64,000 bases of DNA from Kofleriaceae bacterium (GCA_020633495.1 JACKDR010000001.1:310105-374104), one strand, 5' to 3'. Numbered from the stretch's first letter, positions 20,507-59,822 are shown. Notes: generated from the letters alone by a model not told the origin. Made by a program: numbers and translations.

Positions 20507-20889
20507 CCGCGACCCGACGAGCGCTGGTGATCGAGGACTCCCCGACGATGCGCCAGCTGATCACGCTGGCGCTGCGCCGTATCCCGGGGCTGTCGTTCGT
20601 CGAGGCCGCCGACGGCGCCCAGGCGCTCGAGCACCTCGAGCACGACCGCTTCGACGTCGTCCTGCTCGATCTCAACATGCCGGTGATGAACGGCTTCGCG
20701 TTCCTCGAGGCGATGGTCGCCGCGCACCCGCCCGAGGCGCGGCCGCCGGTGATCGTCGTGTCGACCGAGAGCGGCCGCGGCGACGTCCAGCGCGCCACCG
20801 CGCTCGGCGTCGTCGAGTACGTGACCAAGCCGGTCCGGGGTCCGGACCTCGCCGCCGCGGTCAACCGGGTGCTGGCCGCGCGGGCTTGA
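20503..20889 (+). CDS. Single-domain CheY-like response regulator
   Basis: ATG 20503. ALVIEDSPTMRQL...DVVLLDLNMPVMNGFAFLEAM...PVIVVSTE...YVTKP, with the canonical receiver residues D-D...D...T...K. Confidence 0.85.
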   Translation: MTATRRALVIEDSPTMRQLITLALRRIPGLSFVEAADGAQALEHLEHDRFDVVLLDLNMPVMNGFAFLEAMVAAHPPEARPPVIVVSTESGRGDVQRATALGVVEYVTKPVRGPDLAAAVNRVLAARA

Positions 20890-22408: not shown

Positions 22409-22432
22409 GGACCCCGACGGTTTGTCTGGGCG

Positions 22433-23359
22433 ATGGTACCATGGCGTCACCTCGCAAGGGGGAGCTCAAGGGTGCCGGTCCAGCACGTCCTCGTCTGTCA
22501 GGAGCATCGCATCCCCCTTCCCGAGGGGGTCACCGTCGTCGGGCGTGCGATCGGCTGTGGCATCCGCTTCAACACCGCGACGGTGTCGCGCCAGCACCTG
22601 ATCCTCACCGTGCGCGGCGACCGCCTCACCGCGGAGAGCCTGAGCACGACCACCGGCACGCTGATCAACGGGCGCCGCATGAGCGAGCCCGCGGAGCTCC
22701 GCCACGGCGATCGGATCAGCGTCGGACCGCATCTGCTGGTGATCGACGTCGTCGAGGGCGCGGTCGCCGGGCGCCTGGCGGCGCGCCGCGCGACGTCGTC
22801 GCCGGACGCCGACGACTACGACGAGGACACGATCGCCGGCGAGCCGGCCGAGGTCCTGTCGCTGGACGAGCTCGCCGATCAGCTGCCGCCGACCAAGGCG
22901 ATCCGCACTCACACCTGCCCGAGCTGTCGGGCCCGCGTCGCCTTCACCGAGGCGGTGTGCCGGTCGTGCGGCCACGCCTGGGGCGCCACCGACCCCAGCG
23001 CGATCACCGGCCGGATCACGATGCGCCACATCGTCAACGACGTCCGCCAGGCCACCGAGCCGGCCGCCGCGGTGCCGGTCATCTACGCCAGCGACGAGAT
23101 GACGATCGACGTCACCGTGTCGGAGATGGATCAGGACGGCCTGTTCGTGCCGACCGAGCTGCTCGATCCGGTGGGCACGACCTGCGAGCTGACGGTGCTC
23201 CCCGACGGCCACCCGGCGGTGACGTTCCACGGCCAGGTGCGGCGGGTCCGCGCCAGCGCCGACACCCACGGCCCCGCCGGCCTGTTCATCCACTTCACCG
23301 AGGTCTCCGAGGACGCCGGGCTGTGGCTGGTGCGGCGCCTGCGCCAGCTCGACCGCTGA
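22433..23359 (+). CDS. FHA-domain protein with a C-terminal PilZ-like domain
   Basis: FHA: VQHVLVCQEHRIPLPEGVTVVGRAIGCGIRFNTATVSRQHLILTVRGDRLTAESLSTTTGTLINGRRMSEPAELRHGDRISVGPHLLV. C-terminus: RHIVNDVRQATE...DEMTIDVTVSEMDQDGLFVPT...GLFIHFTE (PilZ-like). The start is either ATG 22433 or GTG 22472 (MPVQHVLV). Confidence 0.75.
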   Translation: MVPWRHLARGSSRVPVQHVLVCQEHRIPLPEGVTVVGRAIGCGIRFNTATVSRQHLILTVRGDRLTAESLSTTTGTLINGRRMSEPAELRHGDRISVGPHLLVIDVVEGAVAGRLAARRATSSPDADDYDEDTIAGEPAEVLSLDELADQLPPTKAIRTHTCPSCRARVAFTEAVCRSCGHAWGATDPSAITGRITMRHIVNDVRQATEPAAAVPVIYASDEMTIDVTVSEMDQDGLFVPTELLDPVGTTCELTVLPDGHPAVTFHGQVRRVRASADTHGPAGLFIHFTEVSEDAGLWLVRRLRQLDR

Positions 23360-33232: not shown

Positions 33233-34633
33233 TCAGTTCGCCGGGACCGCGGTGCCGGTCGTCGTCGGGTCGAGCAGGTCGCCGATGTTGTTGACCTGGC
33301 CGTCGCGGGTGCCGAGCTGGCCGGTCTGCCCGCCGAGCCAGTTCCACTCCATGAACTTGACGATCGACGAGTGCTCCATCGTCACGTGCGAGATGTGGTT
33401 GGTCTTGGCGAACGGGCCCAGCGCCATGAACGGCACGCGCACGCCGTAGGGCTGGCAGTCGGCGGTGCTGGTCGGCGGCGGCGGCACGTGGTCGAAGTAG
33501 CCGCCGCCCTCGTCGTAGGTCAGCAGGATCAGCGTGTCGTCGGCGTACGTCGCGCTGTTGGAGATCGCGTCGACGACCTGCTGGGTCGCGGCGACGCCCG
33601 ACGAGATGTCGACCTGGAAGCCCGAGTGCTCGGTGAGGAACCCGATCTGCTTGATGTACGAGATCGCCGGCAGCGTGCCGTCGGTGACGTCGGTGTAGAA
33701 CTGGGTCAGGTCCTGGAAGTGGGCCGGGTCGTTCTGCAGCGTCGGGTAGTACTGGAACGGCACGTCGGTGGGGTCGTAGATGCACGGGTAGAACGCGAAG
33801 TTCACCGGGCACGCCGGATCCGCCAGCGGGCAGGTGCCGTTGGCGACCGCGTCGAGCATCACCTGGTAGCCGCCGCCGTACCACGTCCACGGCACGTCGC
33901 ACTGCTCGAGCAGATCGCCGATCGTCGGGTCGTCGTAGTCCTGCGGGTTCGACGAGCCGACGCCGCAGTTGCTGCCGATCGACGTGGTCTGGACCTCGTT
34001 GTCCTTGAAGACGAAGCCGGCGCGGGCGAAGTACATGTCGTTCGACGAGCTGGCGCCGAGCACCGGCTGGAAGTAGCGGTCGGCCAGGGCGCCGGTGCCG
34101 GCGAGCGTGTGGTACGGGGCCACCGGGCCGGACGTCGTCGCGATCGCGAAGTTGTTGGGCGACGCGCACAGGGCCTCGCCGGTGACGAAGCCGTCCATGA
34201 GGCCGCCGTTGACCTCGAGGATGTTGCAGTCGTAGTTGTGGTTGGGATCGAAGCCGCGGTGCTGGGCGTCGTCGAGGACCAGCGGCGACGCGCCCATCGG
34301 CTCGGTCGCCGGCGCCGCCTCGCAGCACGACGGCCCGGTCGTGCACGTCGGCTCCGAGCCGGGCGCCGCGGTGCAGTAGTTGCCGAAGTAGGTGTCGAAC
34401 GACTGGTTCTCCTGGATGATGACCACCAGGTGGGCGATGTTCGACGACGTCGCGCCGGCCACCCCCGGGCAGGTCAGCGGCGTCGGGGTCGGCGTCTCGA
34501 CCACGCACGGCCCGGGCGGCGCGTCCGCGACGGTCGCGTCGGGCCGGGGCGCGGCGTCGGGGCTCGCGGCGTCGTCGCCGCCGCAGCCGCAGATCACGAG
34601 GGCGAGCAGGACCGGACAGGCCAGGCGCTTCAT
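33233..34633 (-). CDS. Lipoprotein of the phosphoesterase (non-haemolytic phospholipase C / AcpA acid phosphatase) family
   Basis: Signal peptide plus lipobox LVICGCGGDD. Family hallmark HLVVIIQENQSFDTYFGNY; later TYDEGGGYFDHVPPP. Last gene of the lipase-TPR-PLC operon. Confidence 0.85.
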   Translation of the reverse strand: MKRLACPVLLALVICGCGGDDAASPDAAPRPDATVADAPPGPCVVETPTPTPLTCPGVAGATSSNIAHLVVIIQENQSFDTYFGNYCTAAPGSEPTCTTGPSCCEAAPATEPMGASPLVLDDAQHRGFDPNHNYDCNILEVNGGLMDGFVTGEALCASPNNFAIATTSGPVAPYHTLAGTGALADRYFQPVLGASSSNDMYFARAGFVFKDNEVQTTSIGSNCGVGSSNPQDYDDPTIGDLLEQCDVPWTWYGGGYQVMLDAVANGTCPLADPACPVNFAFYPCIYDPTDVPFQYYPTLQNDPAHFQDLTQFYTDVTDGTLPAISYIKQIGFLTEHSGFQVDISSGVAATQQVVDAISNSATYADDTLILLTYDEGGGYFDHVPPPPTSTADCQPYGVRVPFMALGPFAKTNHISHVTMEHSSIVKFMEWNWLGGQTGQLGTRDGQVNNIGDLLDPTTTGTAVPAN

Positions 34634-34687
34634 CCCACCATCCTATGCGAGCCCGGCGCCCTTGTCGCGGTAGGGCATGGTGGGGGG

Positions 34688-35794
34688 TCAGTCCCCCGGC
34701 GCGTCGGCGTCGATCGTCAGCGGCCGGGCCGCCTGCAGGTCGCCGGCGCGGCCGGTGTGGTCGAGGGCGTCGCGCAGCGGCCGCAGCTCGGCGTCGCCGT
34801 CGAACCGCTCGAGCATGCGGTCGCGATCGAGCCGGCTCGACGCCTCGACCAGCAGCGTCGCGACGTCGGCCTCGCTGGCGCCGCCGCGCAGCGCCAGCAG
34901 CGCGTCGCGGTAGACCGGATCGCCGAACCACTTGGCGCCGCCCTGGGCCCGCGCGTAGGCGTCGCGCGCGCCGTCGAGGTCGCCGGCGCGCTCGAGCACC
35001 TCGCCCTGGTAGTAGCGCGACATGCCCTGGACGTAGTCGCCGCCGGCGTCCCAGGCGCGCAGCGCCGCCTCGTCGTCGCCGAGGAAGAACGCGACGTCGC
35101 CGTAGCGGGCCTGGTAGCCACGGTACTTGGAGTCGCCGGGCAGCCGCCCGGCCAGCAGCTCGTCCCACACCGCGCGCGCGTCCTCGTAGCGGCCGAGCTG
35201 GGCGTAGACGTCGGCCAGCTCCTCGAGCGCGGCCTGGGCGTGCAGGCGATCCTCGATCGAGTCGCGCTGCGCCGCGGTGGCGCGCAGCGCCGCGATCCGG
35301 CGCTCGAGCTCGGCGAGGTCGGCGACCGCGTCGCGATCCCGGGCCGCCAGATCCTTCATCAGCCCCGCCAGGTCCGCGGCCTCCTCGAGCGACGGCAGGC
35401 GGACCTCCATCGTGACCTGGGCCCGGGCCCGCCCGCCCCCGTCCTCGACCACGACGCCGACCGCGAAGCGCCCCGGCTTGCCGGGCGCGACCCAGGTCGC
35501 GGCGCCGCCGCCGTCGTCGGTGAGCCGGCCGCGGGTGGCCACCCAGCTCCACCGGACCGCGCCGGCGCGGCCGGTGCCGCGCCGGACCTCGGCGGTCAGC
35601 GCCACCGGCTGGCCGACGACGACGTGCAGCGGCGCGGCGCGCAGCGCGACCTCGAGGCCGGCGCCGGCGACCGGCTGGACCCGCGCCGGCGCGCGTGGCG
35701 CCGCGGCCTGGCCGCCGGCGCGGTGGCGCCACAAGACGACCAGGGCGATCGCCGCGGCGATCACCGCGGCGCCGACCGCGAGGCGACGCGCCAT
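34688..35794 (-). CDS. Membrane-anchored TPR-repeat protein
   Basis: ATG 35792-35794 (MARRLAVGAAVIAAAIALVVL, a TM anchor). C-terminal TPR-like helices (LADVYAQLGRYEDARAVWDELL...YYQGEVLERAGDLDGARDAYARA). Its ATG overlaps the stop of the upstream lipase gene (ATGA at 35792-35796). Confidence 0.75.
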   Translation of the reverse strand: MARRLAVGAAVIAAAIALVVLWRHRAGGQAAAPRAPARVQPVAGAGLEVALRAAPLHVVVGQPVALTAEVRRGTGRAGAVRWSWVATRGRLTDDGGGAATWVAPGKPGRFAVGVVVEDGGGRARAQVTMEVRLPSLEEAADLAGLMKDLAARDRDAVADLAELERRIAALRATAAQRDSIEDRLHAQAALEELADVYAQLGRYEDARAVWDELLAGRLPGDSKYRGYQARYGDVAFFLGDDEAALRAWDAGGDYVQGMSRYYQGEVLERAGDLDGARDAYARAQGGAKWFGDPVYRDALLALRGGASEADVATLLVEASSRLDRDRMLERFDGDAELRPLRDALDHTGRAGDLQAARPLTIDADAPGD

Positions 35795-37830
35795 CAGGAA
35801 CCGGCGGGCGTGTTGGCGTGGATCCAGGTGACGAACGTGTTCTTGAGCGAGCTCGACAGCACCGTGTGCAGCTCGTTGTAGTCGTTCGAGGCCCAGCCGT
35901 TCCAGTACGTCGGCGCCAGCGTCGGGTAGTTCGAGCTGCAGCTGCCGTCCTCGGCGTTGGAGCTGAGGCCGGTCGCGACGCCGAGCGCCGAGTCGGTGTT
36001 GATGAACGACGGGCTGTACTTGAGGCGCAGCTTGAACGTGCCGCACAGCGAGGCATCCTCGTCGGTGTTGACGTCGGCGGCGACCATGTAGCGCGAGCCG
36101 GCGTTGCAGTCGCGCTGGCCGCCGTTCCAGTCGCGATCCTCGGAGCAGAACAGGCCGGTGTACTCGAAGTCGAAGAGCTTGCCCGAGCCCTGCTTGGCGT
36201 AGCCGCCGCTGGCGTTGGCGTCGCCGAACGCGACCGCGTAGCGGGGCAGCACGGTCGGCCAGCCGACGCTGTTGTAGTAGCCGTCGTGGTACGCGGTCGT
36301 GACCGAGCACGACGAGTTCTCGGGCTCCCAGCTGCAGTCGCAGCTCGACACCCGCAGCGTCATCATGTCGGCCGCCGGGTTCGAGAACAGCTGCTTGTAC
36401 TGCGGGTCGCTCGCGTCCTTGTTGCACAGCACCAGGTTCTGGATGCCGCGGTCGCCGCGGCCCAGGTTGGCGCCGGTCTGCGGCGAGTCGACCGAGTACC
36501 AGGCGGTCAGCTTCGACTGCACGCTCCAGTTGTTGTTGGCGATCGTGCTGCGGACGACGACGCCGCCCATCGAGACCCCGGCGAGCTGCAGCCGCCGGTT
36601 GCCCTGGCGCCCGTAGGCGTCGTTGACCCAGCGGCCGACCTCGTCGTTGAACGACGGCAGCCGCTGGTTGCCGTCGCCGAACTTGCCGATCGCGATCGTG
36701 CGGCCCTCGGCGAGCAGCTGCCGGGCCAGGTCCCCGAGCAGGACCATGTACTCGGCGGTCGACGACTCGTTGAGCGGATCGAAGCCGGTGACCAGCAGCG
36801 TCGTGTCGGCGACCGCGCCGCTGGCCGACCAGTAGTCGAGCTTCGAGGTGCCGACGCCGTAGTACGGCGTGAAGCGGGTCGCCACCGCCGGCGCCGGGGT
36901 CAGGTCGGCGCGGCGGATGAAGTGGTAGGTGCCGTGGGTGACGTCGGTGATCGACGACAGCGGGATCGATGCGACGTCGTAGCCCTGGGTGTCGCCCATG
37001 AACGAGGCCGCGCCGTACAGCGAGGCGCCGGCGCAGTTGTTGACGCCCCAGCTCCAGTCGCCGGCGCCGGTGGTGACCTCGACCCACGACCACGCGCCGC
37101 TCGACGCGCAGTACACCGACTGGCCGTACTTGATGTGCTGCCGGACCCGGGCCGGGCTGTAGAAGCCGTCCTTGGCGTTGACGTAGATCGCCGAGGCGCC
37201 GGGCCGATAGAAGCTGCGCGCCGAGCTCGACGCCACGGTCGCGTTGTAGCTGACCTGCTGGGCGACGGTGTCGACGTCCTCCTGCAGGCCGATGGTCGCC
37301 GACAGCCCCATGTTCGAGGCGTAGCCGGTGGCCATGTTGCCGTAGTGGGTCTCGAAGTGACCGTCGGCGAACAGCTTGAGCTCGAACGACGCGCCGGCGC
37401 CGCTGGTCTGGCCGTAGTGGTAGACGCCGTACCACTCGATCACGAACGCGCTGCCCGAAACGCCGGTGTAGATCGACCCGCCGGCGCTGGGGTTCCAGTC
37501 GTCCCACAGGACCGCGATCGACGGCCCCGGCAGCGCGCCGCCGTTGGGCCCGAGCGCGCCGTTGGAGAACGGCGCCGCGGTGTTGCTGCCGAACGTGACG
37601 GTGCCGTTGCTCGACACCGAGACCTGCGTGAAGCTGCGCCCCCAGTACGGGAACGCCCACGGCAGGTTGACCACCGCGGCGCAGTCGTCACAGGTCGACA
37701 CCGCGGCCAGCTGGGTCGGCGCGTAGCTGTACGCGTACGCCGGCGTGCCGGTCGAGTAGCTCGCGTGCGCGACCCCCGTCGCCCCCACCCCGATCCCCAC
37801 GATGATGGCCAGGTTCAGCAGGTGACGCAT
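35794..37830 (-). CDS. Secreted alpha/beta-hydrolase (lipase/esterase-like, GxSxG in LAGVSMGGVVV) with a large Ser/Thr/Asn/Tyr/Gly-rich N-terminal region; 678 aa
   Basis: ATG 37830. Signal peptide MRHLLNLAIIVGIGVGATGVAHA. Composition is noticeably different from neighbouring proteins (few Arg/Ala, many S/T/N/Y/G/W) and local GC looks lower (about 65%). Multiple Cys pairs. First gene of a three-gene minus-strand operon. Confidence 0.8.
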   Translation of the reverse strand: MRHLLNLAIIVGIGVGATGVAHASYSTGTPAYAYSYAPTQLAAVSTCDDCAAVVNLPWAFPYWGRSFTQVSVSSNGTVTFGSNTAAPFSNGALGPNGGALPGPSIAVLWDDWNPSAGGSIYTGVSGSAFVIEWYGVYHYGQTSGAGASFELKLFADGHFETHYGNMATGYASNMGLSATIGLQEDVDTVAQQVSYNATVASSSARSFYRPGASAIYVNAKDGFYSPARVRQHIKYGQSVYCASSGAWSWVEVTTGAGDWSWGVNNCAGASLYGAASFMGDTQGYDVASIPLSSITDVTHGTYHFIRRADLTPAPAVATRFTPYYGVGTSKLDYWSASGAVADTTLLVTGFDPLNESSTAEYMVLLGDLARQLLAEGRTIAIGKFGDGNQRLPSFNDEVGRWVNDAYGRQGNRRLQLAGVSMGGVVVRSTIANNNWSVQSKLTAWYSVDSPQTGANLGRGDRGIQNLVLCNKDASDPQYKQLFSNPAADMMTLRVSSCDCSWEPENSSCSVTTAYHDGYYNSVGWPTVLPRYAVAFGDANASGGYAKQGSGKLFDFEYTGLFCSEDRDWNGGQRDCNAGSRYMVAADVNTDEDASLCGTFKLRLKYSPSFINTDSALGVATGLSSNAEDGSCSSNYPTLAPTYWNGWASNDYNELHTVLSSSLKNTFVTWIHANTPAGS

Positions 37831-37922
37831 GGGTCAGTCCCCATCGCAACTGCTGTTCCGGATTCGCAAATACTGGTGTTCACCTCACAATCTTCACGGC
37901 CGCGGCCGCGGCTCGTGGCAAG

Positions 37923-37954
37923 GCTGTTCAAGTACTGCACAGATCTTGAACAGC
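37923..37954. promoter_or_regulatory. Perfect 10-bp inverted repeat GCTGTTCAAG-N12-CTTGAACAGC in the 148-bp region upstream of the lipase operon; a third half-site (ATGAACAGC) lies at 37968-37976
   Basis: Read directly. The region 37831-37978 is the least GC-rich stretch in the window. The palindrome geometry (10-12-10) fits a dimeric transcription-factor operator. It could alternatively be a terminator for the upstream FMN-reductase gene. Confidence 0.5.
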
Positions 37955-37978
37955 CGCGATCAAGTCATGAACAGCTCG

Positions 37979-38572
37979 TCACCCGGGCTGGACAGCGCGC
38001 TGACCCGCGCGCAAGGCCGCCAGCGCCCCGGTCCAGCGCCCCAGCTCGTCGAGCATGCCCGCCGCCGCCTTGGCCTGGACCTCGCCGGGATCGAAGCGGC
38101 CCTCGGCGTCGAGGTGCTGGCTGAAGAACGGCACCGCCACCGCCTCGGGCACCGGCATCATCTTGAGCGAGGTCACCACCGCCTTGGTCATCTGCACCGA
38201 GCGGGTCCCGGCGGACACGCCGCCGTAGGACACGAACCCGACCGGCAGGTACGCCCACTCGTGGGACAGGTAGTCGAGGGCGTTGAGCAGCGCCGGCGGC
38301 ATCGCGAAGTTGTACTCGGGCGTGACCAGGACCAGCGCGTCGGCGGCCAGGACCGTCTCGCTCCACGCCCGGGTGTGCGCGTGCTCGTACTTCTTCAGGC
38401 GCGGGTGGTGCGGCTCGTCGTAGGCGGGCAGCGCGACCTCGGCGAGATCGACGAGGCGCGGGGTGAAGTGGCCGTGGGCGCGGACCTGATCGAGGACCCA
38501 GGCAGCGACCGCGGGCCCCTTGCGGCCCGGCCGGGTGCTGGTGACGACGACGTGGAGGCTGGGAGCTGGCAT
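37979..38572 (-). CDS. NAD(P)H-dependent FMN reductase (flavodoxin-like fold)
   Basis: MPAPSLHVVVTSTRPGRKGPAVAAWV...ALVLVTPEYNFAMPPALLNALDYLSHEWAYLPVGFVSYGGVSAGTRS, the NADPH-dependent FMN reductase family signature. Confidence 0.85.
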   Translation of the reverse strand: MPAPSLHVVVTSTRPGRKGPAVAAWVLDQVRAHGHFTPRLVDLAEVALPAYDEPHHPRLKKYEHAHTRAWSETVLAADALVLVTPEYNFAMPPALLNALDYLSHEWAYLPVGFVSYGGVSAGTRSVQMTKAVVTSLKMMPVPEAVAVPFFSQHLDAEGRFDPGEVQAKAAAGMLDELGRWTGALAALRAGQRAVQPG

Positions 38573-38672
38573 GCGCTCAACCTAGTGCCGCCGGCCGGCC
38601 ACCGACAGGCCGCGCCCGTGAACACACCGTTCCACCCCCCGCTCCCGCCCACCAGCGGCCCGGCGCCTCCGG

Positions 38673-39872
<1,200 letters not shown>

Positions 39873-39894: not shown

Positions 39895-39986
39895 GTGACC
39901 GGGGCGTGACCGAGCTGACCGGCGCGTGACCGCGCCGCGACCGCGCCGGCGCCGACCGTGGCCGAGACCGCGCGCCGCGGTGACCG
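39895..39986. promoter_or_regulatory. Array of about 8 direct repeats of (G/C)TGACCG spaced about 9-16 bp apart (roughly helical phasing) in the divergent intergenic region between adhC and the B12-radical-SAM gene
   Basis: Read directly. Repeat starts are at about 39895, 39906, 39915, 39926, 39937, 39952, 39964 and 39980. Candidate multi-site regulator binding region; function inferred only. Confidence 0.4.
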
Positions 39987-40017
39987 ACCACGGTGCCGCG
40001 GCCGCCTAGGGTTGGCC

Positions 40018-41547
40018 ATGCGCATCCTGCTGGTCCACGCCGAGTTCCCGCGCACCTACTGGGGCTTCCAGTACGCGCTCTCGATCACCGGTCGCCGCGC
40101 CACGATGCCGCCGCTGGGGCTGTGCACCGTCGCCGCCCACCTGCCGGCGGCGTGGCCGGTGCGCCTGGTCGACGTCAACGTCGAGCCGCTGCGCGACGAC
40201 GACCTGCGCTGGGCCGAGGCCGTGCTGATCGGCGGCATGCTGATCCAGGCGCCGTCGATGCAGGCCATCGTGGCGCGGGCCCGGCGCCACGGCCGGCGCA
40301 CGATCGTCGGTGGCCCGGCGGCGACGACCTCGCCGGAGCTGTTCGACGACGCCGACGTCGTCTTCGTCGGCGAGGTCGAGGGCCGCGACGCCGAGCTGCG
40401 CGCCGCGATCGAGGGCCGCCAGCGCGGCGAGCTCGCGGCGGCGGCGCGGCCGTCGCTGGCGGGGTCGCGGCCGCCGCGGCTCGACCTGCTGCGCCGCGAC
40501 CGCTACACGACGATGGCGCTGCAGACCTCGCGCGGCTGCCCGCACGCGTGCGAGTTCTGCGACGTCGTCGAGATCTTCGGCCGCACGCCGCGGGTCAAGG
40601 ACACCGCGGCGGTGCTCGCCGAGCTCGACCAGCTCGACCAGCTCGGCTGGCGCGGCACGGTCTTCGTCGTCGACGACAACTTCATCGGCAACCTCAAGGC
40701 CGCGCGCCAGCTGTTGCCGGCGATCGCGACCTGGCAGCGCGACCACGGCCACCCGTTCGAGTTCTACACCGAGGCCAGCGTCAACCTGGCGCGCGAGCCC
40801 GCGCTGCTGGCGACGATGGTCGACGCCGGCTTCACCAGCGTCTTCGTCGGCATCGAGACCCCGTCGCTGGCGGCGCTGCGCGAGGTCGGCAAGATGCAGA
40901 ACCTGCGGCTCGACCTCCGCGACGCCGTCGACCGCATCACCGCGGCTGGCGTCGAGGTCATGGGCGGCTTCATCGTCGGCTTCGACAGCGACGACGAGAC
41001 CTGCTTCGCCGCCCAGCGCGCGTTCCTCGCCGACGCGCCGATCCCGCTGGCGATGGTCGGCCTGCTCACCGCGCTGCCCGGCACCGCGCTGTGGCGCCGG
41101 CTCGACGGCGAGCGGCGCCTGCGCCACCGCTCCAGCGGCGACCAGTTCGATCGCCCCAACTTCGCGCCGGCCATGGACGAGCGGGCCCTGCTCGACGGCC
41201 ACGCCGACCTGCTGGCCGAGCTGTACTCGCCCGAGGCCTACCTGCGCCGGTGTCAGGCCGTGCTCGCCGGCGCGCCGCGGCCGCCGACCGGGCGCCGCCT
41301 CCGCCCCGGCGGGCTGCGCATCGCGGCGCGGGCGATCTGGGCGCTCGGCGTGGTGGGGCCCCGGCGCGCGATGTTCTGGCGCCTGGTCGCGCCGGCGCTG
41401 CTGCGCTCCCCCGCGGCGGTGACCTGGACCATCAGCCACGCGGTCCAGGGCGAGCACCTGATCCGCTACACCCACGAGCACGTCGTGCCGGCGCTGCGCC
41501 GCGCCGCCGCGGCGTGCGCGCCGACGGCGACCGACGCCGCGGCGTGA
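40018..41547 (+). CDS. B12-binding-domain radical SAM protein with a C-terminal DUF4070-like region
   Basis: ATG 40018 (MRILLVHAEFPRTYWGF...LGLCTVAAHLP, the B12-binding domain). Radical SAM CxxxCxxC in MALQTSRGCPHACEFCDV. Conserved C-terminal extension typical of this class. Confidence 0.85.
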   Translation: MRILLVHAEFPRTYWGFQYALSITGRRATMPPLGLCTVAAHLPAAWPVRLVDVNVEPLRDDDLRWAEAVLIGGMLIQAPSMQAIVARARRHGRRTIVGGPAATTSPELFDDADVVFVGEVEGRDAELRAAIEGRQRGELAAAARPSLAGSRPPRLDLLRRDRYTTMALQTSRGCPHACEFCDVVEIFGRTPRVKDTAAVLAELDQLDQLGWRGTVFVVDDNFIGNLKAARQLLPAIATWQRDHGHPFEFYTEASVNLAREPALLATMVDAGFTSVFVGIETPSLAALREVGKMQNLRLDLRDAVDRITAAGVEVMGGFIVGFDSDDETCFAAQRAFLADAPIPLAMVGLLTALPGTALWRRLDGERRLRHRSSGDQFDRPNFAPAMDERALLDGHADLLAELYSPEAYLRRCQAVLAGAPRPPTGRRLRPGGLRIAARAIWALGVVGPRRAMFWRLVAPALLRSPAAVTWTISHAVQGEHLIRYTHEHVVPALRRAAAACAPTATDAAA

Positions 41548-41594: not shown

Positions 41595-42746
41595 TCAGTC
41601 GGCGCCGAGCTCGCGGCCGATCGCGCAGCCGCTGACCACGACCAGATCGGTGACGCTGCCGCTGCGCAGGTCGTCGCAGGCGGCGCCGTAGAAGGTGATC
41701 TGCCCGGCCGCGGGGTCGTAGTCCCAGCCGTCGCCGTGGCTGGGGTCGCGGGGCACGTCGAGGCTGTCGAAGAAGACGTGCAGCGTGCTCGAGTCCGGGT
41801 TGCCGGACAGCGCGTACGTGCACGACAGCACCGCGGCGCCGATGCTGTCGAAGGCGGCCTGCAGCGACGCGGCGTCGTCGGCCTGGTAGTAGTACGGCGG
41901 GCCGCCGGGCAGCGCGGTGCCGCCGGCGGTGGCCATGTCGTCGAGCTGGTTGGCGTCGACGCCGCTGCCGAAGCCGACGACGAAGGTCTTGACCTCCGGG
42001 GTCTGGGCGCGCAGGTCGGTGACCGCGGTGACGCCGTCGCCGCCGCAGGTCTCGGAGCCGTCGGTGAGCAGCAGGATGTAGTTCTCGCGCGTGGTGTCGG
42101 CGAGGCCGGCGTAGCCGATCAGCCCGTCGAGGGTGTCGCCGATGGGGGTGCGGCCGCCGGGTCCGGTGTTGCCGAGCGCGGTGTTGATCATGCCGGCGGT
42201 GCCGGCGCCGACGTCGACCTCGATCTGGCCGGGCGCGCACTGGCTGGCGCCCTCGTAGAGCACCAGGCCCCAGCGGACCTGATCGCCGTAGGTGGTCAAG
42301 AGCTGGCCGAGCGCGTCGACCGCGACCTCCCACTTGGTCGAGTTGCCGAGCGCCTCGTCCATGCTGCCCGAGCGGTCGAGCACGATGAGGACGTTGGGCG
42401 GCACGCCCTCGGCCGAGAACTCGTCGCCGGTGCAGCCGCAGAAGCCGCCGGTGCAGACCTCACCGTTGGAGCAGTTGTCGTCGCCGGCGCACGGCCCGCC
42501 GGTGGTGTTGCCGGCGCAGGTGCCGCTGTCCGCGCAGTACGAGCCGCCGTGGCAGTCGGTGTTGCTCGTGCACGGCGTCGGCTCGCACGTGCCGGTGCCG
42601 AGGTTGCACTGCTGCCCGGTCGGACAGTCGTCGGTCGTCGTGCAGTCGGTGACGCCACCGTCGCCGCCGCCGCCACCGCCACCACCGCCGCCGCCGCACC
42701 CCAGGGCGAACGCTCCGAACAGCGCACAGGCGAGCAGGCTCTTCAT
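41595..42746 (-). CDS. Lipoprotein with a Cys-rich EGF/disintegrin-like N-terminal region and a von Willebrand factor A (VWA) domain
   Basis: Signal peptide plus lipobox GAFALGCGGGGG. Repeated C-x-x-x-x-C patterns (DCPTGQQCNLGTGTCEPTPCTSNTDCHGGSYCADSGTCAG). VWA MIDAS motif LIVLDRSGSM...LTDGSE. Confidence 0.8.
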   Translation of the reverse strand: MKSLLACALFGAFALGCGGGGGGGGGGGDGGVTDCTTTDDCPTGQQCNLGTGTCEPTPCTSNTDCHGGSYCADSGTCAGNTTGGPCAGDDNCSNGEVCTGGFCGCTGDEFSAEGVPPNVLIVLDRSGSMDEALGNSTKWEVAVDALGQLLTTYGDQVRWGLVLYEGASQCAPGQIEVDVGAGTAGMINTALGNTGPGGRTPIGDTLDGLIGYAGLADTTRENYILLLTDGSETCGGDGVTAVTDLRAQTPEVKTFVVGFGSGVDANQLDDMATAGGTALPGGPPYYYQADDAASLQAAFDSIGAAVLSCTYALSGNPDSSTLHVFFDSLDVPRDPSHGDGWDYDPAAGQITFYGAACDDLRSGSVTDLVVVSGCAIGRELGAD

Positions 42747-42950
42747 GATCTCAGGTTCCTCCCCTGGGTGGCGAGAAGCAAGCGTCGTTCCGGGGGACGC
42801 GCGCGGTCAGCGACGACGGTTCGGCCCGGCGCTGTGCAAGACGCGGACAGGGTGTGCCGAGTTGTCGTGGCGGACATCGGCGTCGCGGCAGGTGGAGGTC
42901 GCAGGTGCGCGCACAGGGCGCGGCGCCGCCGCGGCGACGCGCGCCACGGG

Positions 42951-44106: not shown

Positions 44107-44646
44107 TCAGGCGCGCCGGAACAGGCGGTGCAGCCAGCGCACGACCTTGCCGCGGTGCTCGGCGGCGACGCCGGCGCCCAGCTCGCGGCTCAGCGCGTGC
44201 TCCTGGTCGCGATCGGCGCCCATCACGATCGCCTCGACGTAGCGGGCGATCAGGCCGATCTGCCCCGACTCGATGTCGAGGGCACGGCCCAGCCGCGAGA
44301 TGTCGCGCGACTCCGCCGGCGCGACCTTGCCGTCGGCGAACGCGACCGTGATGACGTCGGTGAGCAGCGGCACGCGCAGCGCCACGTCGGCCTTGAGGCG
44401 CGTGACGATCGCGTCGGTCGCCGCCGCGTCGGCCCCGGCCGCCGCCGCCAGGACCTGGTCGCGGCCGGCGTCGGACAGCCCGAGCGCCTCGCACATGGCG
44501 CGGAGGTTGCCGAGCTCGGCCTCGTCGGTCTCCTGGTCGGCGAACGCGACCGAGGCCACCACCTTCAGGTAGTCGACGCGATCGGCGTCGGACAACCCGA
44601 GCGCGACGTGACCGTCGTGCCCGGACTCGGAGCTGGGAGTCGTCAT
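44107..44646 (-). CDS. TerB-like (tellurite-resistance TerB family) protein
   Basis: ATG 44644-44646 (MTTPSSESGHDGHVALGLSDADRVDYLKVVASVAFADQETDEAELGNLRAMCEALGLSDAGRDQVL...), a two-repeat TerB-N-like helical fold. The rest of the 847-aa ORF upstream is a wrong-frame artefact. Confidence 0.7.
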   Translation of the reverse strand: MTTPSSESGHDGHVALGLSDADRVDYLKVVASVAFADQETDEAELGNLRAMCEALGLSDAGRDQVLAAAAGADAAATDAIVTRLKADVALRVPLLTDVITVAFADGKVAPAESRDISRLGRALDIESGQIGLIARYVEAIVMGADRDQEHALSRELGAGVAAEHRGKVVRWLHRLFRRA

Positions 44647-44778
44647 GGACGGGACCATACCGGGCGGCCGATCGGTTCGCACCTGGCCGCGGCCGGCGAT
44701 CCGCGACCTTCCGCCGCTTGCCAGGATGCCGCCGCCGGCGTTCATTTCGGGGTCGGGCGCCCTGCCCCCCTGGATCCC

Positions 44779-45666
44779 ATGCCCCCTGTCGACGAAGCCG
44801 AGTCCACCGCGCCGCGCGAGCTGCGCGCCATCCGGGTCGCGATCGCGTGCGCCGTGGTCGGCGCCGCCACCAAGCTGACCGCCGGCGTCATCACCGGCAG
44901 CATGTCGATGATCTCGTCGGCGATCGACTCGCTGGGCGACCTGGTGGTGTCGCTGGTCAACGTCGCCGTGATCCGCATGTCGGACGCGCCACCCGACGAC
45001 GAGCACAACTACGGCCACGCCCGGGTCGAGGGGCTCGGCGCCATGTTCGAGGGCGCGTTCATCTTCGCCGCCGGCGTCTTCATCATCTACGAGGCCGGCC
45101 ACAAGATGTGGATCGGCGAGCTCAGCCACGACTCGACGCTCGGCATCCTGGTCATGCTGCCGATCCTGGCGATGACGATCGCGACGGTGCTGTACCTGCG
45201 GCGCGTCGCCCGCGCCACCGGCAGCCTGGTGATCAAGGCCGACGCGCTGCACTACCTCACCGACGTCTGGGTCAACGTCGGCGTCCTGGTGTCGCTGATC
45301 CTGGTCAAGGTCACCGGCGTGCCGATCATCGACCCGCTGATCTCGATCGGCATCGCGCTGTACATGCTGGTGTCGGCGCTCCACATCGTGCGCGACGGCT
45401 TCGGGGTCGTGATGGACCGGCGCCTCGATCAGGCGCTGATCGACCAGCTCCAGGCCCTGCTGCGCGCGACGCCCGGCATCGCGTCGTTCCACGACTTCAA
45501 GACCCGCGCCGGCAAGATCCCGCACGTCGACTTCCACGTCGTGGTCGCGCCCGAGACCACGACCAAGGAGGTCCACGACCTGTTCCTCGACCTGCAGGCC
45601 CGCATCCGCGACCTGGTCGGCCCGACCACCAAGGTCCTCATGCACGCCGACCCGCTGGGCGGGTGA
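44779..45666 (+). CDS. Cation diffusion facilitator (CDF) family metal-efflux transporter
   Basis: ATG 44779. TM helices with the CDF motifs SAIDSLGDLVVS and HYLTDVWVNVGVL, plus a cytoplasmic C-terminal domain (ASFHDFKTRAGKIPHVDFHVVV). Confidence 0.85.
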   Translation: MPPVDEAESTAPRELRAIRVAIACAVVGAATKLTAGVITGSMSMISSAIDSLGDLVVSLVNVAVIRMSDAPPDDEHNYGHARVEGLGAMFEGAFIFAAGVFIIYEAGHKMWIGELSHDSTLGILVMLPILAMTIATVLYLRRVARATGSLVIKADALHYLTDVWVNVGVLVSLILVKVTGVPIIDPLISIGIALYMLVSALHIVRDGFGVVMDRRLDQALIDQLQALLRATPGIASFHDFKTRAGKIPHVDFHVVVAPETTTKEVHDLFLDLQARIRDLVGPTTKVLMHADPLGG

Positions 45667-45735
45667 GCGACCGGGCGGCGCACATGGGCCACCTGGCCCA
45701 TGGTCAGCGGCCGGGTTCGGCGGCACGCTCGGTCC

Positions 45736-46725
45736 ATGCCCGATCCCAGCACGGCGTGGCGCGAGCGCGTCGCCGACGACGAAGAGGCGCGGTTCGGCCG
45801 CTACGGCGAGCAGCTCGCCGAGCTGCAGCGGCGCGCCGCCGCCCGGCACGGCCCCGGCCGCGCCCTCCACCGCAAGCAGCACCTGGGGCTGCGCGCCACC
45901 GTCGAGGTCCTGCCCGAGCTGCCGGCGCACGCGCGCCACGGCCTGTTCGCGACGCCGGGCCCGCACGAGGCCCAGCTGCGCCTGTCCAACGGCAGCGGCG
46001 AGCGTGCGCCCGATCGCCGCCCCGACATCCGCGGCTTCGCGCTGCGGGTGCTCGGCGTCGACGGCGACGGCGCGCTGGGCGGTCCGGCGACCGCGCAGTG
46101 CTTCGTCCTGATCAACAGCGAGGCGTTCGCGTTCCCCACCGTCGACGACTTCATGGGCGTCGTGGTGGCCGCGGCGCGCAGCCCGTTCGCGGTGCTGCGC
46201 CACCTGCAGCGCCGGCACGGCTTCTTCGGCGGGCTCGGCAAGGCCCGCGCCCTCGGCAAGGCCCTGGGCAAGCCGTTCGGCGGCTTCGCGCACGAGCCGT
46301 TCTACTCGGCGGCGCCGATCGCGTGCGGGCCGTACGCCGCCAAGGTCCGGCTGTGGCCGACCAGCGGCGACGCGCCGCCGCCGCCGTCGAAGCGCGACTG
46401 GTCGGCCGACGTGGTCGCGCGGCTCGGCCACGGCGCGCTGACCTGGGACCTGCAGCTGCAGTTCTTCGTCGACGAGGCGACCACGCCGATCGAGGATCCG
46501 ACGGTGGCCTGGCCCGCGGCGGTGGCGCCGTTCGTGACCGTGGCGAGGGTGACGGCGCCGGCCCAGGACCCGGCCAGCGACGACGGCCGCGCCGTCGCCG
46601 CCGCCGCCGAGGCCGGCGTCTTCGATCCGTGGCAGGCGCTGGCCGCGCACCGGCCGCTCGGCGAGATCATGCGCGCCCGCAAGGTGGCCTACTTCGCCAG
46701 CCAGCAGGGCCGCGGCGCGGCGTAG
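45736..46725 (+). CDS. Catalase-related haem protein (small catalase-like / catalase-related peroxidase family)
   Basis: ATG 45736. LHRKQHLGLRATVEV...FATPGPHEAQLRLSNG...DIRGFALRV...FPTVDDFMG...DLQLQFF...EIMRARKVAYFASQQGR, the catalase core-like motif pattern at about 330 aa. Confidence 0.75.
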   Translation: MPDPSTAWRERVADDEEARFGRYGEQLAELQRRAAARHGPGRALHRKQHLGLRATVEVLPELPAHARHGLFATPGPHEAQLRLSNGSGERAPDRRPDIRGFALRVLGVDGDGALGGPATAQCFVLINSEAFAFPTVDDFMGVVVAAARSPFAVLRHLQRRHGFFGGLGKARALGKALGKPFGGFAHEPFYSAAPIACGPYAAKVRLWPTSGDAPPPPSKRDWSADVVARLGHGALTWDLQLQFFVDEATTPIEDPTVAWPAAVAPFVTVARVTAPAQDPASDDGRAVAAAAEAGVFDPWQALAAHRPLGEIMRARKVAYFASQQGRGAA

Positions 46726-46795: not shown

Positions 46796-48724
46796 GTGGC
46801 GAACCCGGGCGAGGAGACGCACGACCACACGGTCTACCTGCGGGCGCTGGCGCGCCGCTACCCCAACCCGGCGGCGGTGCTCGCCGAGCTGACCAACCTC
46901 GAGTCGATCCTGACCCTGCCCAAGCCGACGGTGCACGTGGTCAGCGACGTCCACGGCGAGCACGTCAAGCTGCGCCAGGTCGTCAACAACGCCTCGGGCA
47001 GCCTGCGGCCGCTGCTGGCCCGGCTGTTCGGCGACCGGCTCGACGCCGGCGAGCTCGACGATCTGCTGACGATGCTCTACTACCCGCGCGAGACCTACCA
47101 GGCGCTGCCCGACGGCGAGCCGCGGCGGGCCGCGGTCCGCCGCTTCGTCGGCCACGCCGTGACCGTCATCCGCGAGCTGGCCCGGCGCTACACGCTCAAG
47201 CACGTCGAGCGCATCGTCCCCGATCCGTTCGACGCCACGGTCCGCGAGCTCCTGTTCGGCGGCGAGCTGGCGCGCGAGCCCGCGTTCCTCGACGGGCTGA
47301 TCGCGCCGTTCTTCCGCCACGACCGCGACCTCGAGCTGGTGCGCATGGTGGCGCGGATCGTCCGCAACCTGTCGGTCGGCGAGCTGGTGGTCGCCGGCGA
47401 CCTCGGCGACCGTGGCCCGCGCCTCGACCGGGTCATCGAGATCCTCGAGCAGCAGCCCAGCGTCGCGATCACCTGGGGCAACCACGACGCCAGCTGGATG
47501 GCGGCGTGCCTGGGCCACCCGGCCGCGATCGCGACGGTGGTGCGGCTGTCGCTGCGCTACCAGCGGCTCGGCCAGCTCGAGGAGGGCTACGGCATCTCGC
47601 TGGCGCCGCTCGAGCGCCTGGCGCGCGACGTCTACGGCGACGACCCGGCGAGCCGCTTCGAGGTCAAGGGCGAGCCGGCCGGCGACCCGCGGCTGCTGGC
47701 CCGGATGCACAAGGCGATCGCGATCATCCAGTTCAAGCTCGACGGCGCGCTGTTCCGGCGCCACCCCGCCTGGGAGCTCGAGGGCCGGGACCTGCTGCGC
47801 CGGATCGATCCCGCGACCATGACCGTCGACGTCGACGGCCAGCGCCACCCGCTGCTCGACGACCGCTGGCCGACGCTGACCTGGGACGATCCCGACGCGC
47901 TGTCGGCGGACGAGCAGCGCTGCCTCGACGAGCTGCGCCGCGGCTTCGTGGCGTCGAGCACGCTGTGGCGCCAGATGTCGTTCGTGGCGTCGCACGGCAA
48001 GATGATGCTGCGCCGTGATCGCTGCGCGATCTTCCACGGCTGCGTCCCGGTCGACGCCGACGGCGCGCTACTGCCGCTGGTCGTCGACGGCGCGCCGCGC
48101 CGGGGCAAGGCCCTGTTCGACGCCCTCGAGGTCGTCGTCCAGCGCGCGTTCCGCAAGCGCCGCCCCGACGATCTCGACACCCTGTACTACCTGTGGACCG
48201 GGCCGCGGTCGCCGTGCTTCGGCAAGGACCGCATGGCGACCTTCGAGGGCCACTTCGTCGCCGACCCGGCGACCCACCACGAGACCAAGAACCCGTACTT
48301 CGCGCTGCTCCACGACGCCGGGTTCTGCGATCGCATCCTGCGCGAGCTCGGCGTCGACGATCCCGCCGGGTTCATCGTCAACGGCCACGTCCCGGTCAAG
48401 CTCGACGCCGGCGAGACCCCGGTCAAGCGCTCGGGCCGCGCCGTGACGATCGACGGCGCGTTCTCGGCGGCCTACGGCGACAAGGGCTTCTCGCTGGTGC
48501 TCGACGCCACCCGCATGTACCTGGCCCAGCACTACCACTTCGACGGCGCGGCGGCGGCGGTCGCGACCGGCGCCGACATCATCCCGACCGTCGCCGACCT
48601 CGAGATCTACCCGCGGCCGCGCACGGTCGCCGACACCGAGCGCGGCGACGAGCTGCGCGCCGAGATCGCGGCGCTCGAGGAGCTGATAGCCGCGTTCGAG
48701 ACCAACCTGATCCGCCCGGCGTGA
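46796..48724 (+). CDS. fbp: Fructose-1,6-bisphosphatase class 3 (Bacillus Fbp type)
   Basis: GTG 46796. 642 aa. VHVVSDVHGEH...GDLGDRGPRLD...WGNHDASWM...NGHVPV (metallophosphatase motifs) across a length typical of FBPase III. Confidence 0.85.
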   Translation: MANPGEETHDHTVYLRALARRYPNPAAVLAELTNLESILTLPKPTVHVVSDVHGEHVKLRQVVNNASGSLRPLLARLFGDRLDAGELDDLLTMLYYPRETYQALPDGEPRRAAVRRFVGHAVTVIRELARRYTLKHVERIVPDPFDATVRELLFGGELAREPAFLDGLIAPFFRHDRDLELVRMVARIVRNLSVGELVVAGDLGDRGPRLDRVIEILEQQPSVAITWGNHDASWMAACLGHPAAIATVVRLSLRYQRLGQLEEGYGISLAPLERLARDVYGDDPASRFEVKGEPAGDPRLLARMHKAIAIIQFKLDGALFRRHPAWELEGRDLLRRIDPATMTVDVDGQRHPLLDDRWPTLTWDDPDALSADEQRCLDELRRGFVASSTLWRQMSFVASHGKMMLRRDRCAIFHGCVPVDADGALLPLVVDGAPRRGKALFDALEVVVQRAFRKRRPDDLDTLYYLWTGPRSPCFGKDRMATFEGHFVADPATHHETKNPYFALLHDAGFCDRILRELGVDDPAGFIVNGHVPVKLDAGETPVKRSGRAVTIDGAFSAAYGDKGFSLVLDATRMYLAQHYHFDGAAAAVATGADIIPTVADLEIYPRPRTVADTERGDELRAEIAALEELIAAFETNLIRPA

Positions 48725-59025: not shown

Positions 59026-59555
59026 GTCGTCGTCGACGGTGGGGGTCCACGCGAACCCGGCCGCCGCGGCGCCGGCGGGGACGGCCGCGGCGACCGGCGC
59101 GGCGACGTCGCGAGGCGCCGCCGTCGGGGCCGGCGGCGGCACGGCCCGGTGCCGCGCGCGGGCGCGCGCGGCGTGGCCGCTGCGGTCAGGGGCGTCGAGC
59201 GCGGCGCAGCGGTCGTCGAGGGCAGGCCCTCGACCCGGGCCCCCTGACCGGTCGGGCTGGCCAGCTGCGCGATGGCCTGGCGCAGGGTCGCGGCGGCCGC
59301 GATCACCGCCGGCGCCGCGGCCGCGACCTCGACGGCGCCGCCGTCGATCGCGTCGAGGCCGCGCTCGAGCGCGAGCGCGAGCCGGCCGACGTCCTCGGCG
59401 CCGACCAGCAGGCTCGACAGCCTGGAGCCGGAACGCGACGTGGGCGAGGCCGCCGCAGGCGCTGGCGCCGAGCGCGCCCGCGACGTCGTCGTCGAGCAGC
59501 GCCGCGTCGTGGACCGCGGCGGCGACGAACGTGTCCCACAGCGACACGCCCTCGC

Positions 59556-59822
59556 TCATGGCGCCTCCCCGGCGTCGCCGAGGCCGTGGCGGCGCAGCCA
59601 GCGCCGGGCGCCGGCCCGGGTCGCGCGCAGCGACAGCGTGACGCCGGCGGCCGCGGCGGCGGCGCGGGCGCGGCGCAGGATCGGCGCGACCTCGTCGGGG
59701 ACCAGCTCGGCGTCGTCGAGATCGACCGCCAGCCGGTGCAGCCTGGGCGCGGCCAGCAGCGCGGTGAGGTCGGCGGTGAGGCGCTCGGGATCACAGCGGC
59801 CACGCACGCGCAGCTCGCGCGC
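59556..59822 (-). CDS. STAS-like (anti-sigma-factor-antagonist-like) domain ORF; either a separate small gene lacking an obvious start or the frameshifted C-terminus of cheR
   Basis: Own translation: ...AAAGPEARELRVRGRCDPERLTADLTALLAAPRLHRLAVDLDDAELVPDEVAPILRRARAAAAAAGVTLSLRATRAGARRWLRRHGLGDAGEAP*. The frame is -1 relative to cheR. The stop overlaps the next ATG (ATGA at 59556-59559). The only in-frame start candidate is an internal GTG, which would truncate the fold. Confidence 0.35.
   Translation of the reverse strand, partial: ARELRVRGRCDPERLTADLTALLAAPRLHRLAVDLDDAELVPDEVAPILRRARAAAAAAGVTLSLRATRAGARRWLRRHGLGDAGEAP

Follow-up and report, generated by a model that had tools for sequence, protein, structure and literature searches.

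Which of three closely spaced minus-strand genes belong together, and what controls them, is the question raised by a 64,000-nucleotide stretch of DNA from a Kofleriaceae bacterium (GCA_020633495.1, JACKDR010000001.1:310105-374104). This whole stretch is referred to here as the window, and all coordinates are window positions. The first gene (35794-37830, an open reading frame call) encodes a 678-amino-acid protein predicted to be a secreted, multi-domain serine hydrolase. The second (34688-35794, also an open reading frame call) encodes a 368-amino-acid membrane protein, called the partner below, and the third (33233-34633) a 466-amino-acid PF04185 phosphoesterase with a lipoprotein-type signal, from the family of AcpA and the non-haemolytic phospholipases C (PLCs). 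The original prediction treated the three as a single operon of a lipase, a tetratricopeptide-repeat (TPR) protein and a PLC under a palindromic operator. Our analysis favors, with a probability of about one in two, a σ54- and activator-controlled cassette of an esterase and its partner, to which the downstream PF04185 gene would be incidental.

Close inspection of the gene borders refines the layout. The hydrolase and partner reading frames overlap by 1 nt: base 35794 serves both the TGA that ends the first and the ATG that opens the second, so that the junction (ggttccTGATGgcg) reads TGATG and not ATGA, as had been described. The gap of 54 bp between the partner gene and the phosphoesterase gene downstream of it (34634-34687) is as originally reported, and the phosphoesterase gene ends 27 bp from a convergent gene.

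Conservation of the two-gene cassette

Twenty related loci, including some duplicate assemblies, were fetched with flanks of up to 8 kb; individual loci are cited by L numbers. They come from Kofleriaceae-like and Polyangia metagenome-assembled genomes (MAGs), an uncultured "delta proteobacterium", Archangium gephyra, A. violaceum and A. lansingense. In all 20, the partner gene directly follows the hydrolase gene on the same strand. At the non-Archangium loci with called genes, the two genes overlap by 1-4 nt or are separated by 0-11 nt; L001, from the uncultured "delta proteobacterium" MAG and the sole locus with called genes in the group of 49-51 % identity, has a gap of 57 nt. The tight coupling first proposed for these two genes is supported by these loci. 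Identities of the hydrolase and of the partner to the window copies also co-vary closely across 18 loci (r = 0.94).

The rest of the neighborhood does not travel with the pair: neither the phosphoesterase gene nor those for a flavin mononucleotide (FMN) reductase, a class III alcohol dehydrogenase and a vault-like protein were found in any of the fetched flanks. Because the partner always adjoins the hydrolase, and orthologues of the phosphoesterase sit in unrelated neighborhoods, the conserved functional unit, judged by gene order, is one of two genes and not three. This cassette was found only in Myxococcota. We regard the pair as rare and uncharacterized, yet not exotic, since it varies known themes: the pairing of a secreted hydrolase and its own dedicated partner, and σ54 regulation in myxobacteria.

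In a clade of about 55 % identity, a further gene of about 200 amino acids follows the partner with a 4-nt overlap (11194-11823 in L003 and 4770-5369 in L021). Its product has an N-terminal hydrophobic helix, no Pfam hit and no counterpart in the window.

The secreted hydrolase

From its N-terminus, the 678-amino-acid protein comprises a signal peptide (37762-37830), a RemA/NIDO-like domain (37195-37761), a beta domain (36826-37194) and an α/β-hydrolase domain with a cysteine-rich cap (35797-36825), all on the minus strand. The GxSxG motif noted originally is present as GVSMGG, and makes Ser420 the candidate nucleophile. In an alignment of 16 homologues, Ser420 and the flanking Gly418 and Gly422 are invariant, as are Asp448 and His655, which complete the candidate triad derived from the alignment and the structural model (minus-strand codons 36571-36573, 36487-36489 and 35866-35868 for Ser, Asp and His). 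The many cysteines that had been remarked upon number 12, all invariant or nearly so across the 16 homologues. Eight invariant ones belong to the cap, an insert of approximately 190 residues between Asp448 and His655. The mature protein is indeed rich in serine (11.5 %), glycine (10.7 %), threonine (7.3 %), tyrosine (5.8 %) and asparagine (5.8 %), and in alanine as well (11.1 %).

This family is small, with 16 full-length clusters among 5.8 billion proteins (49-70 % identity), all from Myxococcota-type sources, and we found no prior description of it in the literature on myxobacterial lipolytic enzymes. Against Pfam and NCBIfam, no family reached threshold, curated lipase families included. 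A domain-by-domain Pfam scan gave sub-threshold matches to NIDO (PF06119, E 0.0085) and to PGAP1 (E 0.13, far below the gathering score). The Pfam assignment sought for the N-terminal region therefore stays below the NIDO gathering score, although two homologues already carry a NIDO tag. The same region finds a relative by profile comparison: residues 5-221 of the family profile match residues 6-225 of RemA, the Flavobacterium johnsoniae gliding adhesin whose sequence is that of PDB entry 8gl6 (PMC10994853), with an E-value of 4e-16. RemA itself is an adhesin of the type IX secretion system that has a lectin domain but no hydrolase domain, whereas the RemA-like domain here is joined to an enzyme and the phylum lacks type IX secretion.

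The AlphaFold model (predicted local distance difference test, pLDDT, 71.9) shows the signal peptide, two confident beta domains (residues ~25-210 and 213-310) and an α/β core. A strand (414-419) and a helix (422-431) frame GVSMGG as a nucleophile elbow, Asp448 follows strand 441-447, and His655 lies between strand 645-649 and the last helix, with pLDDT below 50 around both of these residues. The order strand-Ser420-helix, strand-Asp448, strand-His655-helix is the canonical one. A Foldseek search of the PDB with this model revealed overall fold similarity to solved α/β-hydrolases, with E-values of about 1e-6 to 1e-5 for CALB, BlEst2 and feruloyl esterases. The structural neighbors are a mixture of feruloyl esterases, monoacylglycerol lipases, CALB and polyethylene terephthalate hydrolases. 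The name "lipase" given originally is plausible on these grounds but not demonstrated.

Remote relatives place the domain more precisely. Searching 1.84 billion representatives with a profile of the C-terminal domain returned 13 hits with E-values below 1e-30 and 820 with E-values below 1e-3. Of ten representatives sampled, six carry PGAP1-like and/or palmitoyl-thioesterase (Palm_thioest) domains, one of them also DUF676, while the four closest have no Pfam hit. These distant relatives, together with the nucleophile elbow and the Ser-Asp-His order, establish the hydrolase domain as a divergent α/β-hydrolase remotely related to PGAP1-like enzymes. It differs from the PGAP1/DUF676/palmitoyl-thioesterase branch in its own weak PGAP1 score, in the cysteine-rich insert between Asp and His, and in an architecture of RemA/NIDO-like domain, beta domain and hydrolase that is restricted to about 16 clusters. 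Taken together, alignment and model suggest that the protein is a secreted serine ester hydrolase, rich in disulfides and equipped with putative binding domains.

Elsewhere in the window (4329-6377, plus strand), the alpha subunit of a Rieske/ring-hydroxylating oxygenase is apparently fused to a C-terminal Abhydrolase_2 (phospholipase/carboxylesterase) domain.

The membrane-anchored partner

The partner has an N-terminal transmembrane helix (35720-35791), a PKD/Ig-like domain (35399-35677) and a long helix followed by a TPR-like solenoid (34754-35257), all on the minus strand. Pfam recognizes the PKD domain and weak TPR hits, and nothing else. The model (pLDDT 82) places the transmembrane helix at residues 2-25, the Ig-like domain at 40-132, then the long helix and the TPR-like solenoid at 180-347, the helical solenoid body as a whole spanning 143-347. 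The partner is predicted to be anchored in the inner membrane, with its PKD and TPR domains facing the periplasm. Its family is rare, with eight clusters among 5.8 billion proteins, and Foldseek matches it to generic TPR proteins, including the membrane-anchored chaperone YfgM.

In the LipA-Lif pairs of Pseudomonas and Burkholderia, a secreted lipase is served by a lipase-specific foldase. The arrangement found here resembles them: the gene for a secreted α/β-hydrolase is directly followed by one for a protein with a single N-terminal inner-membrane helix and an all-helical periplasmic body, and the two genes are tightly coupled and always co-inherited. Homology is another matter, as no similarity to Lif (PF03280, Lipase_chap) appeared in the Pfam scan, the Foldseek top 50 or a PDB profile search, and the enzyme matches no lipase family. 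The partner also has an additional PKD domain, and the enzyme two additional N-terminal beta domains and the cysteine-rich cap.

A candidate σ54-type promoter

The 148-bp region upstream of the hydrolase gene (37831-37978) has a GC content of 0.568. In agreement with the original description, the window's lowest-GC stretch of 148 bp lies here, at 37829-37976 (0.554; the next lowest is 0.601). Close to the start codon it contains a candidate σ54-type -24/-12 element, GGAACagcagTTGC (GG-N10-GC; GGAAC-N5-TTGC), at 37846-37859 on the minus strand. Matches were scored at 12 positions against TGGCACG-N4-TTGCW, with GG and GC exactly 10 nt apart. On this scale the window element (CGGAACAGCAGTTGCG) reaches 8/12 and its orthologues, at the same position, 8-10/12, with 10/12 in L002, L015, L018, L020 and L022. 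Matches of at least 10/12 occur three times in the 128 kb of window sequence (both strands), compared with one in each of these five orthologues, and the strict pattern GGNA[CT]-N5-TTGC occurs twice in the window.

Conservation of position and spacing argues for this element. In six aligned upstream regions, the columns GG..A......TTGC are invariant while the sequence between them varies. Nine loci carry the element 27-30 nt ahead of the start codon: the window (CGGAACagcagTTGCG); L002, L015 and L020 (CGGAAC-N5-TTGC); L018 (TGGAATgacccTTGC); L003 (CGGCATtcgacTTGCG); L021 (AGGCGCcctgcTTGCA); and L013 and L014 (CGGACC-N5-xTGCA). In L022 a canonical TGGCAAttgagTTGCA stands 40 nt ahead of the ATG, and in L023 TGGAATgagaaGTGCT is found about 100 nt ahead of it (GG at -118). 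With the C of GC (37846) taken as -12, transcription would start near 37834, leaving a leader of about 4 nt. A leader of this length would also apply to seven more of the nine loci (GC-N13-16-start codon), with the GC of L013 and L014 one base further upstream.

Published promoters from the same phylum offer a comparison. Targets of Myxococcus xanthus enhancer-binding proteins, such as Nla28, combine degenerate -24 boxes with between two and five 8-bp half-sites whose spacing varies, and CGGCATG-N4-TTGCG is listed among the M. xanthus elements (PMC9765219). The element described here is a similarly degenerate version of TGGCACG-N4-TTGCW with several upstream half-sites at variable spacing, and in L003 a gene with GAF, σ54-activator and HTH_8 domains lies immediately upstream of the hydrolase gene. 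Differences are that the half-site is TTGAACAG and not the Nla28 site CT(C/G)CG(C/G)AG, that the activator is not encoded in the window, and that the promoter's nearness to the ATG would make the mRNA almost leaderless. A literature search on M. xanthus transcription start sites and leaderless mRNAs found no such data.

The possibility that GGAAC is the -35 box of an extracytoplasmic function-type promoter was rejected: no conserved -10 follows it, and TTGC at its fixed spacing is invariant.

Further sequence of note lies at and upstream of the element. A block reading TGTGAG...CCAnTAnTTGC (37864-37885, minus strand) is conserved between the window, L002 and L015, and includes a second TTGC that precedes the -12 TTGC by 20 nt. 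That it is a site for an architectural protein is only a guess. The two TTGC copies belong to a direct repeat of 12 nt (CAGyAkTTGCGA, minus strand) with a 20-bp offset at 37844-37875, which puts the second one directly ahead of the -24 box. Five of six aligned loci keep this second TTGC.

Half-sites upstream of the candidate promoter

Further upstream lies a near-perfect 34-bp palindrome, GGCTGTTCAAG-N12-CTTGAACAGCC (37922-37955), composed of two inverted TTGAACAG half-sites and proposed here as an activator site. On the plus strand its arms read GCTGTTCAAG (37923-37932) and CTTGAACAGC (37945-37954), 12 nt apart. A third half-site reads TGAACAGC on the plus strand and GCTGTTCA on the minus strand (37968-37975). 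It lies 3 nt after the FMN-reductase stop, at about -134 to -141 from the predicted transcription start, and forms part of an 11-nt direct repeat with a 21-bp spacing to the next half-site. The palindrome and third half-site of the original prediction are thus exactly in place.

The palindrome is unique in the window, so that the regulon search suggested for it yielded no second copy there; the half-sites do recur, as TTGAAC(AG), upstream of the orthologues. TTGAAC/TGAACA sites number 18 in nine orthologous upstream regions of 200 nt, where dinucleotide shuffling gives approximately 1.5 (P < 1/2000). Their distance upstream from the GG-N10-GC element is 60-140 nt. They are present in L002, L003, L013, L014, L015, L018 and L020, but their number, orientation and spacing vary. 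L018 has six copies, including CTGTTCAAgtcCTGTTCAA and GGTTCAATTATTGAACA; L003 has three direct copies in 10-bp phase; L002 and L020 have two each; L015 has one exact copy and two CTTGGAC variants; and L013 and L014 have one or two. Two other TGAACAGC hits in the window that were inspected as regulon sites (55019 and 55720) lie inside coding sequence. A LexA box of the CTGAAC-N4-GTTCAG type was discarded for mismatches in orientation and spacing. A metagenome scan for CTGTTCAAG-N12-CTTGAACAG was uninformative, returning at least 120 stretches of which, among the matches listed, none exceeded a GC content of 0.64 and most were gut- or plant-associated repeats.

This variability bears directly on the dimeric regulator that had been suggested from the geometry of the window copy. 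The cis element itself is conserved, but with changing number, orientation and spacing. Such half-sites, set upstream of a conserved GG-N10-GC element, suit the activator (enhancer-binding protein) sites of a σ54 promoter more than the operator of a single repressor dimer, and the hydrolase-partner pair appears to be under σ54 promoter control through the upstream TTGAACAG sites.

The competing view closest to the original model is that these sites are a dimeric-repressor operator or a classical σ70 activator site serving a σ70 promoter, with GG-N10-GC an unrelated conserved leader. The 10-bp arms are perfect, the Shine-Dalgarno-like sequences downstream of GG-N10-GC in the window and L003 suggest starts further upstream, and L018 has a divergent OmpR-type regulator and an 11-bp-phased CTGTTCAAgtcCTGTTCAA that resembles a response-regulator box. 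However, a σ70 promoter scan of 33000-38700 found no -35/-10 pair, the 22 bp between the arm centers would be an unusual distance for one dimer, and the spacing of GG, TTGC and ATG is kept while the sequence between them is not, with no conserved -10-like element. We therefore consider this view rather unlikely.

Alternatively, the palindrome could act mainly as RNA, as a terminator without a U-tract or a stabilizer of the FMN-reductase transcript, with its likeness to other loci incidental. The palindrome, whose symmetry reaches arms of 16 nt (37922-37937 and 37940-37955) that are 88 % complementary, begins about 25 nt after the FMN-reductase stop on the same strand, its predicted hairpin is stable beyond chance (-18.9 kcal/mol, z = -3.25 compared with shuffles), and in L020 GCTGTTCAG likewise directly follows the stop codon of the upstream gene. 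Yet an intrinsic terminator scan of 33000-38700 found no site at the palindrome, and its stem, AT-rich against the genome's 75 % GC, leads into CUUGCCACGAG and not into a U-tract. Rfam gave no match window-wide at gathering score, nor in 33100-38100 at E-values up to 1. Because orientation and spacing vary and several upstream genes are divergent (in L002, L015 and L018), the half-site would act as DNA and not merely as a terminator hairpin; the direct repeats of L003 and L015 are unable to form one, and the enrichment noted above would have to be fortuitous. An RNA role, including that of a terminator of the FMN-reductase transcript, which the original prediction had named (if mapped) among its refutations, is distinctly unlikely.

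The Archangium loci have sequences of their own at this place. In L004, L005 and L007-L012, two to four tandem TGGACT-like units in 9-bp phase lie about 50-110 nt before the hydrolase start, as in TGGACTcccTGGACTctcTGGAACTtcTGGTTCT of L007. Given the CTTGGAC variants of L015, these repeats may be a diverged version of the TTGAAC site.

The second match to the strict pattern in the window, the σ54-like element CGGAACgacgcTTGCT (42778-42791, minus strand), lies upstream of a gene for a VWA-domain lipoprotein with a poly-Gly linker (41595-42746, minus strand), which has a normal leader and Shine-Dalgarno sequence. A half-site with one mismatch, CTTGCACAGC (42831-42840, minus strand), is found 39 nt upstream of that element. 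The gene may belong to the same regulon as the cassette, but this is suggestive only.

Proposed mechanism and its weighing

Our findings suggest the following course of events. An enhancer-binding protein bound to the TTGAACAG half-sites (the palindrome and the third site) would activate the σ54-type promoter at 37846-37859, and transcription would begin about 4 nt before the ATG. The hydrolase, exported by the Sec pathway, would cleave an acyl ester on a surface-bound or polymeric substrate of lipid, lipoprotein or polyester type, its N-terminal domains holding the target. The partner, translationally coupled through TGATG, would bind the enzyme during its periplasmic transit as a dedicated chaperone, escort or inhibitor, in a role analogous to, though not homologous with, that of the lipase-specific foldase. 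The phosphoesterase gene would have landed beside the cassette in this lineage, and is perhaps read through from the same promoter.

Several observations weigh against this scheme, whose probability we put near one half. The Archangium clade has neither the σ54 element nor TTGAAC, and carries the tandem TGGACT repeats instead. Sites as good as the window's own 8/12 match number about 159 in the window, so that the element convinces only through its orthologous position. The 4-nt leader makes the mRNA nearly leaderless, and the Shine-Dalgarno-like GGGGA of the window and GAGGTGA of L003 would fall 5' of the transcript, a hint that a further promoter may exist upstream. The 64-kb window contains no enhancer-binding-protein gene, tblastn with the L003 and L018 regulators gave generic receiver-domain matches only, and the half-site array of L018 adjoins an OmpR-type two-component pair and not an enhancer-binding protein. 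Promoter, start site and activator are all inferred from comparative sequence. On the protein side, pLDDT falls below 50 at residues 449-458, 537-639 and 651-656 of the hydrolase, so that the triad is a candidate one, and no likeness of the partner to Lif in sequence or fold was found.

The two genes could also be read as a toxin-immunity module, in which an antibacterial lipase or esterase is exported for predation or competition while the TPR partner shields the producer's own envelope during periplasmic transit. Obligate, coupled adjacency would suit such a module, as would the GxSxG motif found in lipase effectors, the predatory habit of the host organisms and the faster evolution of the partner (40 % identity compared with 50 % for the enzyme in Archangium). 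Nevertheless, a single locus per genome was recovered, with apparently vertical inheritance; there are no polymorphic C-termini and no secretion-system or rhs/vgrG neighbors; PADLOC defense-system models returned nothing meaningful, and Pfam gave no toxin or immunity hits. The smooth co-variation of divergence is what housekeeping co-inheritance would produce. A toxin-immunity function is, in our view, quite improbable.

The fullest version of the σ54 cassette reading holds that this is an undescribed, Myxococcota-specific system of enzyme and helper (or immunity protein) directed at ester-linked surfaces of prey or the environment, expressed from a near-leaderless mRNA by σ54 and an enhancer-binding protein that recognizes TTGAACAG arrays. 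We offer it tentatively, as rather doubtful in its entirety. A conserved σ54 promoter 3-5 nt before the start codon would be an unusual arrangement in itself. If the cassette reading as such is right, a family outside the Pfam and NCBIfam models would gain a name and a testable model, with members in cultivable Archangium species that make experiments feasible. A second, non-homologous case would be added in which the obligate partner of a secreted hydrolase is a helical, membrane-anchored protein, and the half-site would offer a candidate for the DNA sequence recognized by one of the numerous orphan enhancer-binding proteins in myxobacteria.

The neighboring phosphoesterase

The third protein covers the whole PF04185 domain shared by AcpA and the PlcH/PlcN-type PLCs (E 1e-54; 186 bits with a cut-off of 23; profile positions 1-353 of 356). 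It falls below both relevant NCBIfam cut-offs, with 102 bits for the phosphocholine-specific PLC family TIGR03396 (cut-off 580; positions 40-351 of 688 matched) and 122 bits for the acid phosphatase family TIGR03397 (cut-off 363). Its best solved relative is the Francisella acid phosphatase AcpA (2d1g, E 2e-30), whereas solved PLCs score 1e-18 or weaker and, among bacteria, are 666-744 amino acids long compared with 466 here. The lipoprotein-type signal peptide is a further difference from the AcpA and PlcH/PlcN-type enzymes. The protein is 100 % identical to one from a Kofleriaceae MAG and belongs to a very common family (more than 1381 hits) whose source labels are "phospholipase C" (JGI) or "alkaline phosphatase family protein". 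Orthologues of 66 % and 63 % identity occur in unrelated contexts, after a lipoate-ligase gene or a trypsin-like protease gene. To judge from its sequence and context, then, it is a common AcpA-like enzyme and a lineage-specific neighbor outside the conserved cassette, although it may be co-transcribed or read through from the hydrolase promoter.

The original idea that all three genes form one operon degrading membrane or prey lipids, as lipase, helper and PLC, draws on the shared strand, on the 54-bp gap without a terminator-like site, which folds no better than shuffles (z = 0.28) and thus shows no strong terminator, and on the JGI name of the third gene's relatives. Several results speak against it: the phosphoesterase is missing from the fetched flanks of every orthologous pair, its close orthologues have other neighbors, it is closer to AcpA than to solved PLCs, it falls short of the TIGR03396 cut-off, and its family is very common. 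We strongly doubt the three-gene operon, and "phospholipase C" at this locus would be an easy misreading of an incidental AcpA-like neighbor.

About 9 kb away, the window encodes a type I phosphodiesterase/nucleotide pyrophosphatase (PF01663; 42951-44003, minus strand), which together with the PF04185 protein may hint at a local phosphate-scavenging theme.

Base composition

The low local GC that was reported for the hydrolase gene is real (0.692 compared with 75.1 % for the window), but it is not a sign of foreign origin. Third-position GC is 0.984, the same as in the neighbors, and the deficit is confined to first positions (0.563); it arises because the protein is rich in Ser, Ala, Gly, Thr, Tyr and Asn. 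A horizontal-transfer island was rejected, third-position GC being 0.984-0.989 in the hydrolase and phosphoesterase genes, as in core genes, and this amino-acid composition effect is thus another easy misreading corrected.

Other genes in the window

Converging on the phosphoesterase gene is a gene (30710-33205, plus strand) for an 831-amino-acid bacterial homologue of a eukaryotic vault component, with the shoulder domain of the major vault protein (PF11978, E 2e-26) as well as a vault repeat (PF17795). Directly ahead of it lies the gene for a CHASE-domain Ser/Thr protein kinase (28490-30649, plus strand). On the other side of the cassette, a B12-binding radical SAM protein with DUF4070 (39958-41547, plus strand) is encoded divergently from the alcohol-dehydrogenase and FMN-reductase genes, with an 847-amino-acid protein containing TerB domains nearby (44107-46650, minus strand). 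A full-length class III fructose-1,6-bisphosphatase of the "Firmicute type" (PF06874, E 1e-187; 46796-48724, plus strand) is present in this 75 % GC myxobacterial window. Two CheA-like histidine kinases (Hpt/HATPase) are encoded at 20861-22450 and 54700-59559, both on the minus strand, the second also with CheW and receiver domains. Several stand-alone receiver-domain matches at 54.7-57.2 kb, together with the second CheA-like kinase, look like a chemosensory-type cluster.

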